Shown here one piece after another: positions 55,937-62,538 of a stretch of 64,000 nt of DNA (its first letter is position 1; the number at the start of each line of letters is the position of its first letter). The DNA is taken from assembly GCA_964601515.1 (NCBI GenBank), contig CAZRNU010000002.1:2755-66754 (forward strand), given 5' to 3'. The stretch comes from an uncultured Bacteroidales bacterium (GTDB taxonomy: Bacteria; Bacteroidota; Bacteroidia; Bacteroidales; UBA7960). The notes beneath the pieces were generated by a model. It made no database searches. It was not told the origin of the DNA and worked only from the letters and a program-made list of their open reading frames with translations. A program made the translations under genes and the position numbers.

Positions 55937-56008
55937 ATGCACGAAATGTTTTTATTCAATTTACATCATCATCATTTTCATACTTGCGCTCAGGCGAGGT
56001 GGGAATGA
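55937..56008 (+). CDS. hisL: his operon leader peptide MHEMFLFNLHHHHFHTCAQARWE
   Basis: Manual translation: 6 His codons including (CAT)4, directly upstream of a terminator and hisG. Confidence 0.85.
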   Translation: MHEMFLFNLHHHHFHTCAQARWE

Positions 56009-56066
56009 TATTTTGTAATTTATAATATAATTATAAAACCCGTCTGAGTAAACAGGCGGGTTTTTT
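55989..56066 (+). promoter_or_regulatory. his attenuator (antiterminator / terminator)
   Basis: Terminator AAAACCCGTCTG/CAGGCGGGTTTT+TT at 56035-56066; CTCAGGCG (55989-55996) can pair with CGTCTGAG (56041-56048). Confidence 0.85.
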
Positions 56067-56111
56067 GTTTCTACACTCCAATAGTTTACTCAGACATAAA
56101 TTGTTATTAAA

Positions 56112-56969
56112 ATGAGTAAACTAAAAATTGCCATTCAAAAAAGCGGCAGATTAAGTGAAAAATCGCTAGACCTTTTTAGGGAATGCGGTATTAAACTTCC
56201 TAACGGTGACCGAAAATTAAAAACTGAAGCCAAAAACTTTCCATTGGAAATTTTGTATCTCAGAGATGATGACATTCCTCAGTATGTTGAGCAAGGGGTA
56301 GCTCATGTTGGAATTCTTGGAGAGAATGAAATTGAGGAAAAATCTAAAAATGTCATACGTATTAAAAAACTTGGTTTTGCAAGCTGTAAATTATCTCTAG
56401 CCATTCCCAAAGATGAGGAATACAATGGTTTAGATTGGTTTGATAACAAGAAAATTGCAACATCATACCCGAAAATTCTCCGAAAGTATTTTGACAAACA
56501 AAACATCAAAGTAGAAATAGAAGAGATTGGAGGAAGTGTTGAAATAGCTACCGGAATTGGCTTGGCAAATGCAATATTTGATATAGTTAGTACCGGAAGT
56601 ACATTAATAATGAACGGGCTCAAAGAGGTAGAAGTTGTAATGAAAAGTGAAGCTGTTTTGATTTCCAACCCTAATCTAAACACTCAGCAAAATGAAATAC
56701 TCAGCAGATTATTATTCAGAATAGCTGCCGTAAAAAATGCAGGTGAGAACAAATACATTCTACTTAATGCACCTAACAACTCTATTGATAAAATTTCTAA
56801 AATAATTCCCGGAATGAAATCTCCCACAATTTTGCCATTAGCTAAAAAAGGCTGGAGCAGCTTGCACTCAGTAGTGAAAGAAGATGAATTCTGGGATGTT
56901 ATTGACAAGCTTAAAGAATGCGGTGCTCAGGGAATATTAGTAGTACCTATAGAGAAAATGATTATTTAA
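56112..56969 (+). CDS. hisG: ATP phosphoribosyltransferase (long form)
   Basis: LKIAIQKSGRLS, LRDDDIP, GSVE, DIVSTGSTL, PGMKSPT. Confidence 0.97.
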   Translation: MSKLKIAIQKSGRLSEKSLDLFRECGIKLPNGDRKLKTEAKNFPLEILYLRDDDIPQYVEQGVAHVGILGENEIEEKSKNVIRIKKLGFASCKLSLAIPKDEEYNGLDWFDNKKIATSYPKILRKYFDKQNIKVEIEEIGGSVEIATGIGLANAIFDIVSTGSTLIMNGLKEVEVVMKSEAVLISNPNLNTQQNEILSRLLFRIAAVKNAGENKYILLNAPNNSIDKISKIIPGMKSPTILPLAKKGWSSLHSVVKEDEFWDVIDKLKECGAQGILVVPIEKMII

Positions 56970-56985
56970 CTTAACCTTTAATAAA

Positions 56986-58284
56986 ATGGAGAAATTATTT
57001 AAACCCGAAAAGTCGATTTGGAAACAATTAACCCAAAGACCTGAGAAAGACTTTAACTCACTATCGAAGACTGTAAACGACATTTTTGATGACATTAAAA
57101 GGAATGGTGATTCTGCTGTAATCAGATACACAAAGCTATTCGACAAAGCAGAAATAACCGAACTAAAACTAAGCGATGCCGAATTCAAAGAAGCGGCAGA
57201 AAAAGTATCAGATGATTTAAAACAGGCAATATCAGTTGCTGCCAAAAACATTGAGAAATTTCACCTTTCGCAAATAGAAATCTCAAATATTTGCGAAACA
57301 ACGAAGGGTGTTTTCTGCTGGAGAGAAAGCAGGGCTATTGAAAAAGTGGGAATATATGTACCCGGAGGAACAGCTCCTCTTTTTTCGAGTGTGCTGATGC
57401 TTAGCATTCCGGCAAAAATTGCAGGATGCAAAGAAATTATCATGTGCACTCCACCAGATAAAAATGGGAAAGTTGACCCTGCAATTATTTTTACTGCTCA
57501 AACTGTTGGCATAAAATCTATTTATAAAGTTGGAGGTGTTCAGGCAATTGGAGCAATGACTCTTGGTACAACCGGTATCTCAAAAGTAGATAAGATTTTC
57601 GGGCCGGGAAATCAATATGTAACCGCTGCAAAACTAATTTCTCAAAACTATGGAGTTGCTATTGACATGCCTGCCGGACCAAGCGAAGTGCTTATTATCG
57701 CTGATAGTTCAGCAGACCCTGAGTTTATTGCCGCAGATTTACTTTCTCAGGCTGAGCACGGAGAAGACAGTCAGACAATTTTACTTTCTACAGATGAAAC
57801 AATTATTAACGATGTATTTGAGAAAATAGAGCAACAATTGATTGTTTTGCCCAGAAAGGAGATAGCAGCTACGGCGCTAAAATATAGTAAAGCGATACTA
57901 TTTAACAGCATTGAAGAATGCATTGAGTTTAGCAACCTTTATGCACCTGAGCACTTAATAATGGCCTTAGAAAATGCTAATTCATATCTGTCACTGATTG
58001 AAAATGCCGGTTCTGTTTTTGTCGGAAATTTCAGTTGTGAAAGCGCAGGCGACTATGCAAGTGGAACAAATCACACACTGCCTACAAATGGTTACGCAAG
58101 AAACTATAGTGGAGTATCACTGGATAGCTTTCTCAAGAAAATTACATTCCAGGAAGTAACCATGGAAGGAATAAAAAATCTCGGACCAACAATAGAAATT
58201 ATGGCCGAAGCAGAGCAGCTCGATGCCCACAAAAATGCTGTAAGCGTAAGACTAAAGAAACTCAATAATATGAAACCTTTATAA
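56986..58284 (+). CDS. hisD: Histidinol dehydrogenase
   Basis: [50 protein letters not shown]. Confidence 0.97.
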
Positions 58285-58286
58285 AG

Positions 58287-59906
58287 ATGAACTCATTTGA
58301 TATAACCAAACTTTTAAGGCAGAATATAATATCGCTTAAGCCATACTCATCAGCAAGAAATGATTTTTCGGGTGGAGCTGAAATATTTCTGGATGCAAAT
58401 GAAAATCCTTATGGAAATCTAAACAGATATCCTGACCCTTTGCAAATGGAACTTAAACGATTAATTGCATCTCAAAAAAACATTCCAATAGAAAATATTT
58501 TCATTGGAAATGGCAGTGACGAAATTATTGATTTATCTATCAGAGTGTTTTGCGAACCACAGAAAGATAAGATACTGATTTTCGCTCCTACATATGGGAT
58601 GTACGAATTTTTAGCAAATGTCAATAATGTTGAAGTTGTTAAAGTTCCACTTGACAGCAATTTTCAAATAGACTTCAATCTATATGAGAAGGCTGTTTCC
58701 GAAAACAATGTAAAAATGTTGATTTTGTGCTCGCCAAACAACCCTACAGGAAATTCTTTGGAAGGTATAGATGAAATATTGAATCGCTTTAATGGAATTG
58801 TATTTATTGACGAAGCTTATATTGAGTTTTCTAATAAAGGCTCTTTCGTTTCAAATGCACTTTCAATGCCAAATGTAATTGTATCAAGAACATTAAGCAA
58901 GGCCTGGGGATTGGCTGGTGCAAGGATAGGATTAGGTTATGCCTCTAAAGAAATTATTTCATTGTTTTCCAAAACAAAATATCCTTATAATGTTAGTAGC
59001 TTAAACCAGAATGAAGCTATTAGAATATTGAAAAACGATGAGGAATATAATCGCAGAAAGCTTTCAATAATAAGCCAAAGAGAGATTCTTATAAAAGAAC
59101 TGTCGCAGTTACCGATAGTAAATAAGATTTATCCCTCAGATTCAAATTTCATTCTTATTGCAACAGAACAATCTCAAAAAGTATATTCTCAGCTTGTTGA
59201 AATGGGTATAATAATAAGAAATAGGAATAATGAAATTGAAAACTGCCTAAGAATAACTGTTGGCAGTCCTTATGAAAATCAACAACTTATAAAAGCTCTG
59301 CAAATATTAAGCAATGTTAGTGGGAAAACTGACAGAACAGCGGCTTTAAAGCGAAAAACAAATGAAACCAATATAGATGTTGTTGTAAACCTTGATGGTT
59401 CAGGATATAGCAATATCTCGACAGGTTTAAAGTTTTTCGACCACATGCTTGAGCAAATTGCAAAGCATGGCAATGTAGATCTAAATATTTCTGCAGTTGG
59501 CGATTTAGAAACAGATGAGCACCATACTGTTGAAGATGTTGCAATAATATTGGGAGAAGCTTTTAACAAGGCTCTTGGAAACAAAGAAAGCATTGAAAGA
59601 TACGGATTTGTTTTACCTATGGATGAAAGCCTTGCGCAAGTAACTATTGACTTTGGAGGAAGACCATATTTAGTGTGGGATGTTTCGTTTAAGCGTGATA
59701 TGATAGGCGATATGCCTACAGAAATGTTTAAGCACTTTTTCAAATCATTCAGCGACAATGCAAAATGCAACATAAACATTAAGGCTGAGGGAGAAAATGA
59801 TCACCACAAAATTGAGGCAATATTTAAAGCTTTTTCAAAATCAATAAAACAGGCAGTAAGCAAATCCAATGTAAAATCAATACCAAGCACAAAAGGAATA
59901 ATATGA
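58287..59906 (+). CDS. hisC-hisB: Fused histidinol-phosphate aminotransferase / imidazoleglycerol-phosphate dehydratase
   Basis: HisC ([32 protein letters not shown]) runs without a stop into IGPD ([38 protein letters not shown]). Confidence 0.92.
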
Positions 59907-60487
59907 TAGCAATTATAAAATATAACGCGGGAAATATCGCATCAGTAAAAAACGCTGTCGAACGACTCGGATATCAGTGCATTATAACTGACGACAAGAA
60001 AACTTTAATGAACGCTTCAAAAGTTATTTTCCCCGGCGTAGGAGAATCGGGTTTTGCCATGAATTATCTTAAAAGCAAAAATCTCGATAAAGTCATAAAA
60101 CAGCTTAAACAACCCGTGCTTGGCATTTGCCTTGGACTGCAGCTGCTTTGCAGGTTTTCGGAAGAAAGCAACACCTATTGTTTGGGAATTTTTAATAACG
60201 ATGTTAAGATGTTTCCGAAAAAAGGGATTATTCCGCATATGGGATGGAATAATCTGGAAAAACTTAGTTCAGAGCTTTATAATGGATTAGAAAATAATCC
60301 TGATGTGTACTTTGTACATAGTTATTACGCTGAAATATCAGGAGAAACAACGGCTGTAGCAAATTACATATTACCTTTTAGTGCTTCAATGCAAAAGGAC
60401 AATTTTTTTGCAACTCAGTATCATCCTGAAAAATCGGGAACTTTTGGAGAAACTATATTAAAAAACTTTCTATCACTAAAATCATGA
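59903..60487 (+). CDS. hisH: IGP synthase glutamine amidotransferase subunit
   Basis: GICLGLQ, PHMGWN, YFVHSY, QYHPEKS. Confidence 0.96.
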
Positions 60488-61200
60488 AAATAATACCTGC
60501 AATTGACATAATAAATGGGAAATGCGTAAGATTAACAAAAGGAGATTACAGCACAAAGATTATTTACAATGACAATCCTTTGGAAGTTGCTAAAAAATTT
60601 GAAGCAAACGGCATATCGCATCTGCACTTAGTTGATTTGGACGGCGCCAAAGCCAATAGAGTAATAAACTATAAAATTATTAATGATGTTGCAAAAAATA
60701 CCAAACTAAAGATTGATTTCGGAGGCGGAATAAAATGCATTAATGACTTAAACCTAGCATTTGAAAACGGCGCCGATCAAATCACCATTGGTAGTATGGC
60801 TGTGAAGCAACCTGACATTTTTTTAGAATGGCTTAAAAAATTTGGCAACGAGAAGATAATTCTTGGAGCCGATTGTATTGATAAAAAAATTGCATATAGC
60901 GGATGGCAATTTGTGTCTGATTATAAAGTAGTTGATTTTATTAAGAACTATGAAAAAGCAGGAGTAAGATACGTTGTATGTACTGATATTTCAAAAGACG
61001 GAACTCTACAGGGGCCTTCATTAAAATTATATGAGGAAATAATATCCGAAACGAATGTTTCTCTTATTGCAAGCGGCGGAGTTTCAGACATTGGCGACCT
61101 AATTAAATTAAAAAAAGCAGGTTGCGAAGCCGCAATAGTTGGCAAGGCCATTTACGAGGGGAAAATTACACTTAATCAAATACAAGAATACTATGCTTAA
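60484..61200 (+). CDS. hisA: ProFAR isomerase
   Basis: [39 protein letters not shown]. Confidence 0.96.
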
Positions 61201-61945
61201 GAAAAGAATAATACCATGTCTTGACATTAAAGACGGTACAACGGTTAAAGGGATAAACTTCATTAATATCAAAAATGCCGGAGACCCAATTGAACTGGCA
61301 AAAAGGTACGTTGATGAAGGTGCAGATGAGTTGGTATTTTTAGATATAACTGCAACAAACGAAAAGAGAAAAGCACTTGCGAATTTAGTTAGCAAAATTG
61401 CAAAAGAGATAAATATCCCATTTACGGTTGGTGGAGGTGTTCAATCTTTGGGAGATGCATCTGTTTTGATTAATTCAGGAGCTGATAAAATCAGCATTAA
61501 CTCAGCTGCCGTAAAAAATCCCGGGATTGTTTCCCAAATAGCATCAGTATTTGGGAATCAATCCGTTGTAGTTGCAATTGATGCAAAGTATAATAATGGG
61601 AAATATTATGTTTATCTCAATGGAGGTAGAATTGAAACAAACATTGATGCAACAGAGTGGGCAATAAAAGTCGAAAAAGCAGGTGCAGGCGAGATTTTAT
61701 TAACATCTATGGATGCCGATGGAACAAAAAACGGATTTAACCTTGAACTTACAAAAAAAGTATCTGAATCGGTCAATATTCCGGTAATCGCATCCGGTGG
61801 TGCAGGTACAATGGAAGACTTTAAATCTGTATTTACAAAAACCAAGGTATCAGGAGCACTAGCAGCAAGCATATTCCATTACAATGAGATAAATATCTCT
61901 CAATTAAAAAACTACTTACAACAAGAAAACATTCCAATAAGATGA
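61193..61945 (+). CDS. hisF: IGP synthase cyclase subunit
   Basis: [34 protein letters not shown]; start reassigned to 61193. Confidence 0.96.
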
Positions 61946-62538
61946 AAACAAAATTTAAAATCAATTTCAAAAAAGGCGCCGGCCTTATTCCTGTAATTAT
62001 ACAGAACAACTTGAATATGAAGATTCTTATGCTCGGCTATATGAATGAAGAGGCACTAAAAAAAACCATAGAAGAAGGCATGGTTACATTATACAGCAGA
62101 AGTCGTAAATGCTTATGGACAAAAGGTGAAACTTCAGGCAACTTTTTAAAAGTAGCGAACATTTTACCTGATTGCGACAATGACACCCTATTGATTCAGG
62201 TTATTCCCAAAGGTAATACTTGTCATAAAGACAGAGAAAGCTGCTTTGGAAAAATGACTGAAAAAGGTTTTATTTATGAATTAGAGAATATTGTTTCAGA
62301 GAGAATTGAAATCGATGCAGAAAACTCTTACACCAATAAACTATACAAAAAAGGGATAGCTAAAGTATCTCAGAAGGTTGGAGAAGAAGCAGTAGAATTG
62401 GTTATTGAGGCTAACCGTAATAATAAAAACTTATTTAAAAATGAAGCAGCAGACTTACTGTATCACTTGTTAATACTGCTAAAATCAAAAAATATTAAAC
62501 TGGAAGATGTTGAAAAAATATTAAAATTGAGGTCATAA
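61942..62538 (+). CDS. hisIE: Phosphoribosyl-AMP cyclohydrolase / phosphoribosyl-ATP pyrophosphatase
   Basis: WTKGETSG, DCDNDTLL, CH...SCF, KVGEEAVE, EAADLLYH. Confidence 0.96.
   Translation: MKTKFKINFKKGAGLIPVIIQNNLNMKILMLGYMNEEALKKTIEEGMVTLYSRSRKCLWTKGETSGNFLKVANILPDCDNDTLLIQVIPKGNTCHKDRESCFGKMTEKGFIYELENIVSERIEIDAENSYTNKLYKKGIAKVSQKVGEEAVELVIEANRNNKNLFKNEAADLLYHLLILLKSKNIKLEDVEKILKLRS

Follow-up and report, generated by a model that had tools for sequence, protein, structure and literature searches.

The locus examined here raises the question of how two consecutive enzymes of histidine biosynthesis came to be encoded by one gene, and of how the phosphatase that normally accompanies them is now supplied. 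It lies in a stretch of 64,000 nucleotides (hereafter the window) from contig CAZRNU010000002.1 of an uncultured Bacteroidales bacterium, the DNA source being an activated-sludge metagenome. The histidine (his) operon of the window encodes every step of the pathway except histidinol-phosphate phosphatase (HolPase), and its hisC gene, for histidinol-phosphate aminotransferase, runs without a stop codon into the coding sequence of imidazoleglycerol-phosphate dehydratase (IGPD). IGPD and HisC catalyze consecutive pathway steps. We found that the fused gene is real and conserved, that its origin by excision of a domain is unusually clear, and that a plausible replacement phosphatase is encoded elsewhere in the genome. 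Taken as a whole, the explanation that we consider likely is that the gene encodes a genuine bifunctional HisC::IGPD, predicted to provide, on a single chain, the dehydratase of step 6 and the aminotransferase of step 7 in histidine biosynthesis.

One Reading Frame Encodes Complete HisC and IGPD Domains

The gene is a single uninterrupted open reading frame (ORF) of 539 residues (58287–59906, forward strand) with no internal stop, composed of a complete HisC (residues 1–342), a 7-residue linker (N343–D349), and a complete IGPD (residues 350–539). A preliminary description of the window had already reported a 539-residue ORF joining the aminotransferase to IGPD by a short linker, and the ORF, the domain scores, and the linker text all bore this out. 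In Pfam, Aminotran_1_2 was matched at residues 43–338 and IGPD (PF00475) at residues 379–519, the latter with 210.8 bits over profile positions 1–143 of 144. The hisC model TIGR01141 scored 325 bits against a cut-off of 276.55, with residues 11–339 placed on profile positions 1–347 of 349, and the IGPD model NF002111 scored 268.5 bits against a cut-off of 231 over residues 349–539. The model of the bifunctional HisNB, which carries HolPase and IGPD (NF003937), missed its cut-off (301.5 vs. 443 bits) and was matched only at profile positions 127–355; thus, the HAD phosphatase part is absent. The alignment to this model reached back to residue 309, which was taken as an over-extension and not as a HAD remnant, HisC being complete to residues 339–342.

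The catalytic residues of both domains were intact. Across 31 fused proteins sharing 50–71% identity, the invariant residues on the HisC side, where the fold-type I core is conserved, included the pyridoxal phosphate (PLP) lysine K205 (S-K-A-W-G), N152, D175, Y178, and R311/R322, and those on the IGPD side included the metal ligands H386, H412, H413, E416, H483, H506, H507, and E510; the fused protein retains both D/N-x-H-H-x-x-E metal motifs as well as the remaining His ligands of IGPD. The best match of the HisC part in the PDB was the Escherichia coli enzyme (1fg3, 205 bits). The AlphaFold2 monomer of the fusion (predicted local distance difference test [pLDDT] 86.9, predicted template modeling score [pTM] 0.80) placed the last HisC helix at residues 328–341 and the first IGPD strand at residues 351–357. 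Both domains are predicted to be active in one oligomer.

Probable Origin of the Fusion by Excision of the HAD Domain

The extent of the deletion was determined by aligning the fused protein with concatenated HisC and HisNB from the nearest unfused operons. In this alignment, the window protein matched unfused HisC to its natural C-terminus (...ALQILS, S342), continued with NVSGKTD, and then resumed at the first conserved IGPD residues (R350 ... R356, T358, E360, T361). What is missing relative to the unfused genes is the whole HAD domain of ~170 residues (MKK..DRDGT..GDR.TD..) together with the hisC stop codon, and the junction looks like a clean in-frame excision of HAD, in agreement with the in-frame deletion of the phosphatase that had been proposed for this gene. 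The presumed normal arrangement in Bacteroidota, hisC followed by bifunctional hisNB, was likewise observed in 84 of the 113 classifiable loci and in nearly all of an even sample of 400 genomes of the phylum; in unfused relatives, the two genes abut or overlap.

We propose that an ancestral, translationally coupled hisC and hisNB underwent one in-frame deletion, which would have eliminated the stop codon of hisC and, in its entirety, the histidinol-phosphatase domain of HAD type; this order of events is the one we infer from the comparison of the fused and unfused genes. The same deletion would also have taken the hisNB start codon, and IGPD would then be translated only if joined in frame to hisC. 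Because only in-frame joins to hisC would keep IGPD translated, the repeated appearance of the same product would be explained.

The HAD domain was lost and not moved, because the two stand-alone HAD-IIIA proteins of the genome are only 22–30% identical to the HAD domains of HisNB, which are 65–80% identical among themselves; a relocated HAD domain was thus ruled out. No HAD remnant was found in the long linkers of other fused lineages, which are of low complexity. The linker of the genus-mate G401 (KKDILGT) bears an apparent similarity to the HAD motif NQDGLGT that is too short to interpret. Long open frames in four genomes (G247, G043, G067, and G320), considered as HisC-HAD-IGPD intermediates, were rejected once extracted, as none had the C-N-B composition. 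HisC, HAD, and IGPD were found on one chain in only two database proteins, the metagenomic P0049 (746 residues) and P0054 (725 residues), which could be intermediates in which fusion preceded the loss of HAD, or frameshift or annotation artefacts. Separately, in a Marinilabiliales metagenome-assembled genome (MAG), hisC, HAD, and IGPD occupy three separate ORFs of 364, 176, and 189 residues (L034:3306–5469), an apparent fission of hisNB and the opposite outcome to fusion.

Distribution and Repeated Origin of the Fusion

The preliminary description had treated the fusion as a one-off, newly created bifunctional enzyme, and this did not hold. When the same fusion was sought in other genomes, it was found in 14 relatives, including G401, most of the window's family carrying it in a single frame, and also in several other Bacteroidota lineages; among 5.8 billion proteins searched, more than 120 protein clusters had the same two-domain architecture of 533–560 residues, cultured Ekhidna species included. 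Direct fusions accounted for 13 of the 80 GTDB loci fetched, almost all others having the ancestral hisC and hisNB. Among the matches listed for the 400-genome sample, outside which lie 688 weaker matches, a single full-length match was present in one genome besides that of the window. The fusion looks rare per species and widely scattered. It had also been foreseen that the architecture might prove both widespread and already described: the first is the case, and no published description of a hisC::hisB fusion was found in the searched literature. A survey of 91 strains from Fani's group (Del Duca et al. 2021; PMC8305728) recorded hisNB in all Bacteroidetes considered and listed hisIE and hisNB as fusions, a hisC::hisB fusion not being mentioned.

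We addressed the history of the fused state with trees of concatenated HisC and IGPD columns from which the linker and the HAD domain were excluded; these were quick-search trees, with rows picked by similarity to the fused query. The window protein formed a clade with G401/P0002 and P0003 (100% support in the Shimodaira–Hasegawa-like approximate likelihood ratio test [SH-aLRT]), which P0004 joins, and this clade was nested among the unfused operons of G433, G065, and G124 with 95–96% support, two other fused clades of the window's own family lying apart from it. In the first tree (110 rows), the fused state required 10 changes, with at least 7 forced by well-supported branches; in the second (121 rows), it required 17, with at least 11 so forced. 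A single fused clade was rejected by the approximately unbiased (AU) test, with a difference in log likelihood (delta lnL) of 490 and p = 5e-15. Because regain of HAD at the same site is implausible, we read these changes as repeated independent excisions, and the fusion has at least 7–11 independent origins. The large fused clades were uniformly fused (27/27 and 19/19 rows); therefore, the fusion is stable once formed. A caveat to these trees is that his operons clearly move horizontally. The sampled relatives are not independent of each other.

The operon itself is patchy within the genus (genus-mates G402, G403, and G404, with family member G413 alongside): no hisC, IGPD, or hisD match was obtained in three of the four genus-mates, which are 76–94% complete. 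On the gene tree, the window operon groups with unfused operons of other orders and classes (G433, G065, and G124). Patchiness and gene-tree placement together suggest horizontal gain or loss of the whole his operon.

A Candidate for the Missing Phosphatase

The preliminary description had found no HAD phosphatase domain in hisG-D-CB-H-A-F-IE and had assigned the phosphatase step to an unlinked gene. Neither a HAD nor a PHP homolog was detected by tblastn anywhere in the 64-kb window, and the hisB N-terminal model TIGR01261 gave nothing over its cut-off in the whole genome (92% complete); the step must indeed be supplied by an unlinked gene, and candidates exist in the genome. Of the enzyme types to be looked for, HisN, HisJ/HisK, and HAD proteins, the genome yielded a PHP-type HisJ-family protein, its HAD-IIIA and inositol monophosphatase (IMPase) proteins scoring below the hisB N-terminal and HisN cut-offs, respectively.

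The PHP protein (275 residues), encoded on another contig than the operon, exceeded the cut-off of the HisJ-family model TIGR01856 (159 vs. 90.2 bits). Its only PDB matches were three histidinol-phosphatases (from Thermus thermophilus, Listeria, and Lactococcus lactis), of which 2yxo was the best. In the alignment with 2yxo, the H-x-H, E, S-x-H, G-H-x-D, and D-x-H motifs line up, and we take these to be the PHP metal-site motifs with their putative ligands. The PHP family was present in 12 of 15 fused relatives, among them all 10 whose completeness is 90% or higher. It also occurred in 7 of 10 fused genomes that are distant, against a background of 24 in the 400 genomes of the phylum sample. 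One fused genome that is 100% complete (G430) has the PHP protein and no HAD-IIIA protein. On the strength of these matches and this distribution, we lean toward the PHP protein as the putative HolPase of this genome.

Since the family is also found in unfused and in histidine-less relatives, the PHP protein probably pre-existed the fusion. The nearest unfused relative of the window operon within the order (G433) encodes both HisNB and a PHP protein, and looks like the state before the deletion. We propose that this Bacteroidales group already had a PHP phosphatase capable of acting on histidinol phosphate, which would have made the HAD domain redundant and its deletion tolerable. In other fused lineages, an IMPase-type HisN would fill its place: two related fused genomes without the PHP family, G345 (100% complete) and G445, have IMPase-type HisN proteins at 274–276 bits against a cut-off of 275.

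Several observations weigh against the assignment of the step to the PHP protein. Its score on the HisJ equivalog model NF005996 was a marginal miss (130.6 vs. 133), its gene is unlinked to any his gene, and it shares only 21–30% identity with the PHP proteins encoded by distant fused genomes. Of 7 unfused relatives retaining the HAD domain, 4 passed the PHP model, and so did 10 of 19 relatives without detectable his genes. Three genus-mates are among the latter, as is a family member that is 100% complete and yielded no hisD. Because the family persists in relatives without the histidine pathway, its substrate is probably a different or a wider one. In one fused genome (G441), no clear HisJ or HisN was present. 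No PHP or HAD homolog was located near the fused gene, over distances of up to 10 kb, in the 12 fused loci with flanking sequence, or in the window. The PHP gene is located on contig C3 (L003:1–2901) between udk (uridine kinase) and a purF-like, glutamine-amidotransferase-like ORF; a conserved neighborhood was considered and discarded, as udk is adjacent here and not in distant fused genomes.

The step might instead be performed by another enzyme, whether a GmhB-like HAD-IIIA protein, an IMPase-family protein (L005, L006), or a phosphatase that is unassembled or unrecognized, and we regard this as a realistic but distinctly less likely explanation. The genome being 92% complete, another phosphatase could lie in the missing 8%, and the persistence of the PHP protein in his-less relatives speaks for such an enzyme as well. 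Both HAD-IIIA proteins exceeded the cut-off of the "histidinol-phosphatase domain" model TIGR01656 (111.8 and 99.5 bits vs. 84), GmhB, a paralog of HisB-N, has been suggested to have the capacity for HolPase activity (PMC8305728), and HolPases are notoriously non-orthologous and redundant (PMC12220765). However, besides their low identity to true HisNB HAD domains, the two proteins reached only 79 and 50 bits on the hisB N-terminal equivalog model, far under its cut-off of 140, and also missed the GmhB cut-offs, and their gene contexts are not those of histidine genes (one lies with DUF4914 and a transposase, the other with MORN and mnmA-like genes). GmhB-like proteins are further disfavored as a general substitute because HAD-IIIA proteins are entirely lacking in the complete fused genome G430, and the IMPase proteins of the window's genome reached only 109 and 76 bits on HisN against the cut-off of 275. 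At L001, the HAD-IIIA gene overlaps the start of the DUF4914 gene by 4 nucleotides, and a DDE transposase gene adjoins.

Linker Variability and the Question of Channeling

HisC dimerizes, IGPD forms a Mn-dependent 24-mer, and HisNB shows that IGPD tolerates N-terminal additions. Across independent fused lineages, the length of the linker between the two enzymes spans about -2 to 86 residues; where long, the linkers are low-complexity tethers rich in Ser, Gly, Pro, Asp, Ala, and Gln. Such variable low-complexity linkers are more in keeping with a flexible tether than with a fixed tunnel, and they argue against a set geometry between the domains. The complex prediction for the HisC domain with the IGPD domain scored 0.01, a value that counts neither for nor against binding. 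In a family-mate of the window's genome (L126, G415:C77), the linker of 86 residues (373–458) consists of repeated GS(R/D)(S/P)GSDP-like units and is an expanded low-complexity tether between two enzymes.

It has to be weighed whether the fusion is adaptive, that is, whether HisC dimers carried on the IGPD 24-mer (up to 12, at the two-fold axes) channel imidazole-acetol phosphate from IGPD to HisC, and whether this advantage, not mere tolerance, drives the repeated origin. The joint claim would fit the consecutive order of the two activities, the 7–11 or more origins, the stability of the large fused clades, the tolerance of N-terminal additions to IGPD seen in HisNB, and the pTM of the monomer model. 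The range and composition of the linkers, however, agree better with loose proximity, the recurrence is also expected from the neutral argument that only in-frame joins rescue IGPD translation, and no solved PDB chain spanning both domains was found. We consider the adaptive account unlikely. More doubtful still is its most specific form, according to which the convergent fusions would be IGPD 24-mers bearing 12 HisC dimers that channel a labile imidazole-acetol phosphate, HAD excision having been selected for that purpose after a PHP or IMPase enzyme had taken over the phosphatase step.

The his Operon and the Authenticity of the Junction

The genes of the operon are ordered hisG, hisD, the fusion, hisH, hisA, hisF, and hisIE, with junctions that are 2-nucleotide gaps or 4-nucleotide overlaps (table 1). 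The region 55937–56071 (forward strand) upstream of hisG has the form of a classical His attenuator, here in a Bacteroidales MAG. The leader peptide begins MHEMFLFNLHHHHFH, and the stem of the attenuator terminator has 12 pairs, 0.1 such sites being expected in shuffled sequences. The leader region folds with z = -5.7, and one hairpin pairs the His codons. The Rfam His_leader family (RF00514) was matched at 55966–56070 with 32.7 bits, under its gathering score of 49.

Table 1. Features of the his operon in the window and candidate phosphatase genes elsewhere in the genome (G000)
Feature	Position	Strand	Remarks
His-rich leader peptide ORF	55937..56008	+	23 codons, run HHHHFH; upstream of hisG; read from sequence
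Intrinsic terminator-like hairpin and T run (attenuator terminator)	56035..56071	+	41 nucleotides before hisG
hisG, long form (HisG + HisG_C)	56112..56969	+	
hisD, histidinol dehydrogenase	56986..58284	+	
HisC domain of the fused ORF	58287..59312	+	Residues 1–342; PLP lysine K205 in motif SKAWG
Linker NVSGKTD (N343–D349)	59313..59333	+	Site of the hisC stop and the ~170-residue HAD of HisNB in unfused relatives
IGPD domain of the fused ORF	59334..59906	+	Residues 350–539 plus stop; Mn-site motifs intact
hisH	59903..60487	+	4-nucleotide overlap with the stop codon of the fusion
hisA	60484..61200	+	
hisF	61139..61945	+	ORF as listed; real start probably ~20 codons inside; Pfam match from residue 23
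hisIE (PRA-CH + PRA-PH)	61942..62538	+	
PHP-type HisJ-family protein, 275 residues	G000:C3:20494-21243 = L003:1435-2262	-	Other contig than the operon
GmhB-like stand-alone HAD-IIIA protein	L001:1390-1935	-	Contig C141 of G000
GmhB-like stand-alone HAD-IIIA protein	L002:1402-2103	-	

The junction was checked in other assemblies. A Logan contig of 1,897 nucleotides, made by a second assembler from the probable source run, bridges it with 0 differences, which is not independent evidence. The genus-mate G401, assembled separately, has the same 539-residue fusion at 71% identity; because the junction is conserved in this independent assembly, the fusion is not a misassembly. Thus, the proposal that the ORF is an artefact (a misassembly or chimeric contig), or belongs to a decaying operon that no longer makes histidine, is close to refuted: the genome is a metagenome bin of low coverage (about 5x) and the absence of his genes from three of the four genus-mates shows the pathway to be dispensable in the genus, but the same junction recurs not only in the genus-mate but in hundreds of other assemblies, the contig of the second assembler crosses it unchanged, the eight operon genes all overlap and are intact over their full length, the catalytic residues are invariant, and a His-codon attenuator precedes the operon.

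Significance and Comparison with Known Systems

Histidine biosynthesis is a textbook model for the shaping of pathways by gene fusion, operon assembly, and non-orthologous displacement. The enzymology of the present case is ordinary, as it concerns two well-known domains, and the architecture is widespread and recurrent; thus, the finding is a modest one. Excision and fusion at least 7–11 times, with replacements of the PHP or IMPase type, nevertheless constitute a natural replicated experiment, which bears on domain loss made possible by redundancy and on the part of translational coupling in determining which deletions survive. There is also a practical consequence: because the fused proteins are publicly annotated only as "histidinol-phosphate transaminase," automated pathway reconstruction will wrongly call IGPD and the phosphatase missing in fused genomes.

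Among known systems, the PHP HolPases HisJ/HisK (Bacillus subtilis; L. lactis, 4gc3; T. thermophilus, 2yxo) resemble the unlinked 275-residue protein in that the latter passes the HisJ-family model; the candidate differs in reaching only 73 bits to the nearest solved enzyme, in falling just under the HisJ equivalog cut-off, and in belonging to a family that also occurs in relatives without the histidine pathway. Monofunctional HisC (TIGR01141; 1fg3) is matched over its full length and above cut-off, with the PLP lysine and the other invariant residues, whereas the fusion has no stop at this point and runs through 7 residues into IGPD.

The closest comparison is with HisNB of E. coli, Salmonella, and most Bacteroidota (NF003937). 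Both are IGPDs with an N-terminal enzyme of the histidine pathway, in both the IGPD follows hisC in the operon, the window IGPD is homologous to that of HisNB throughout, and the closest relatives of the fusion are HisNB proteins. In the fusion, however, the N-terminal partner is the PLP aminotransferase HisC, which catalyzes the next step, and not the HAD phosphatase, which acts two steps later. The fusion is therefore HisNB-like, with its N-terminal partner swapped for the product of the upstream gene, but is not a member of the HisNB family, because the defining HAD domain was tested for and is absent. As in the hisIE, HIS4, and HIS7 (= hisHF) fusions, neighboring his cistrons have merged into one multifunctional gene; unlike these, the HisC::IGPD fusion went together with domain loss.

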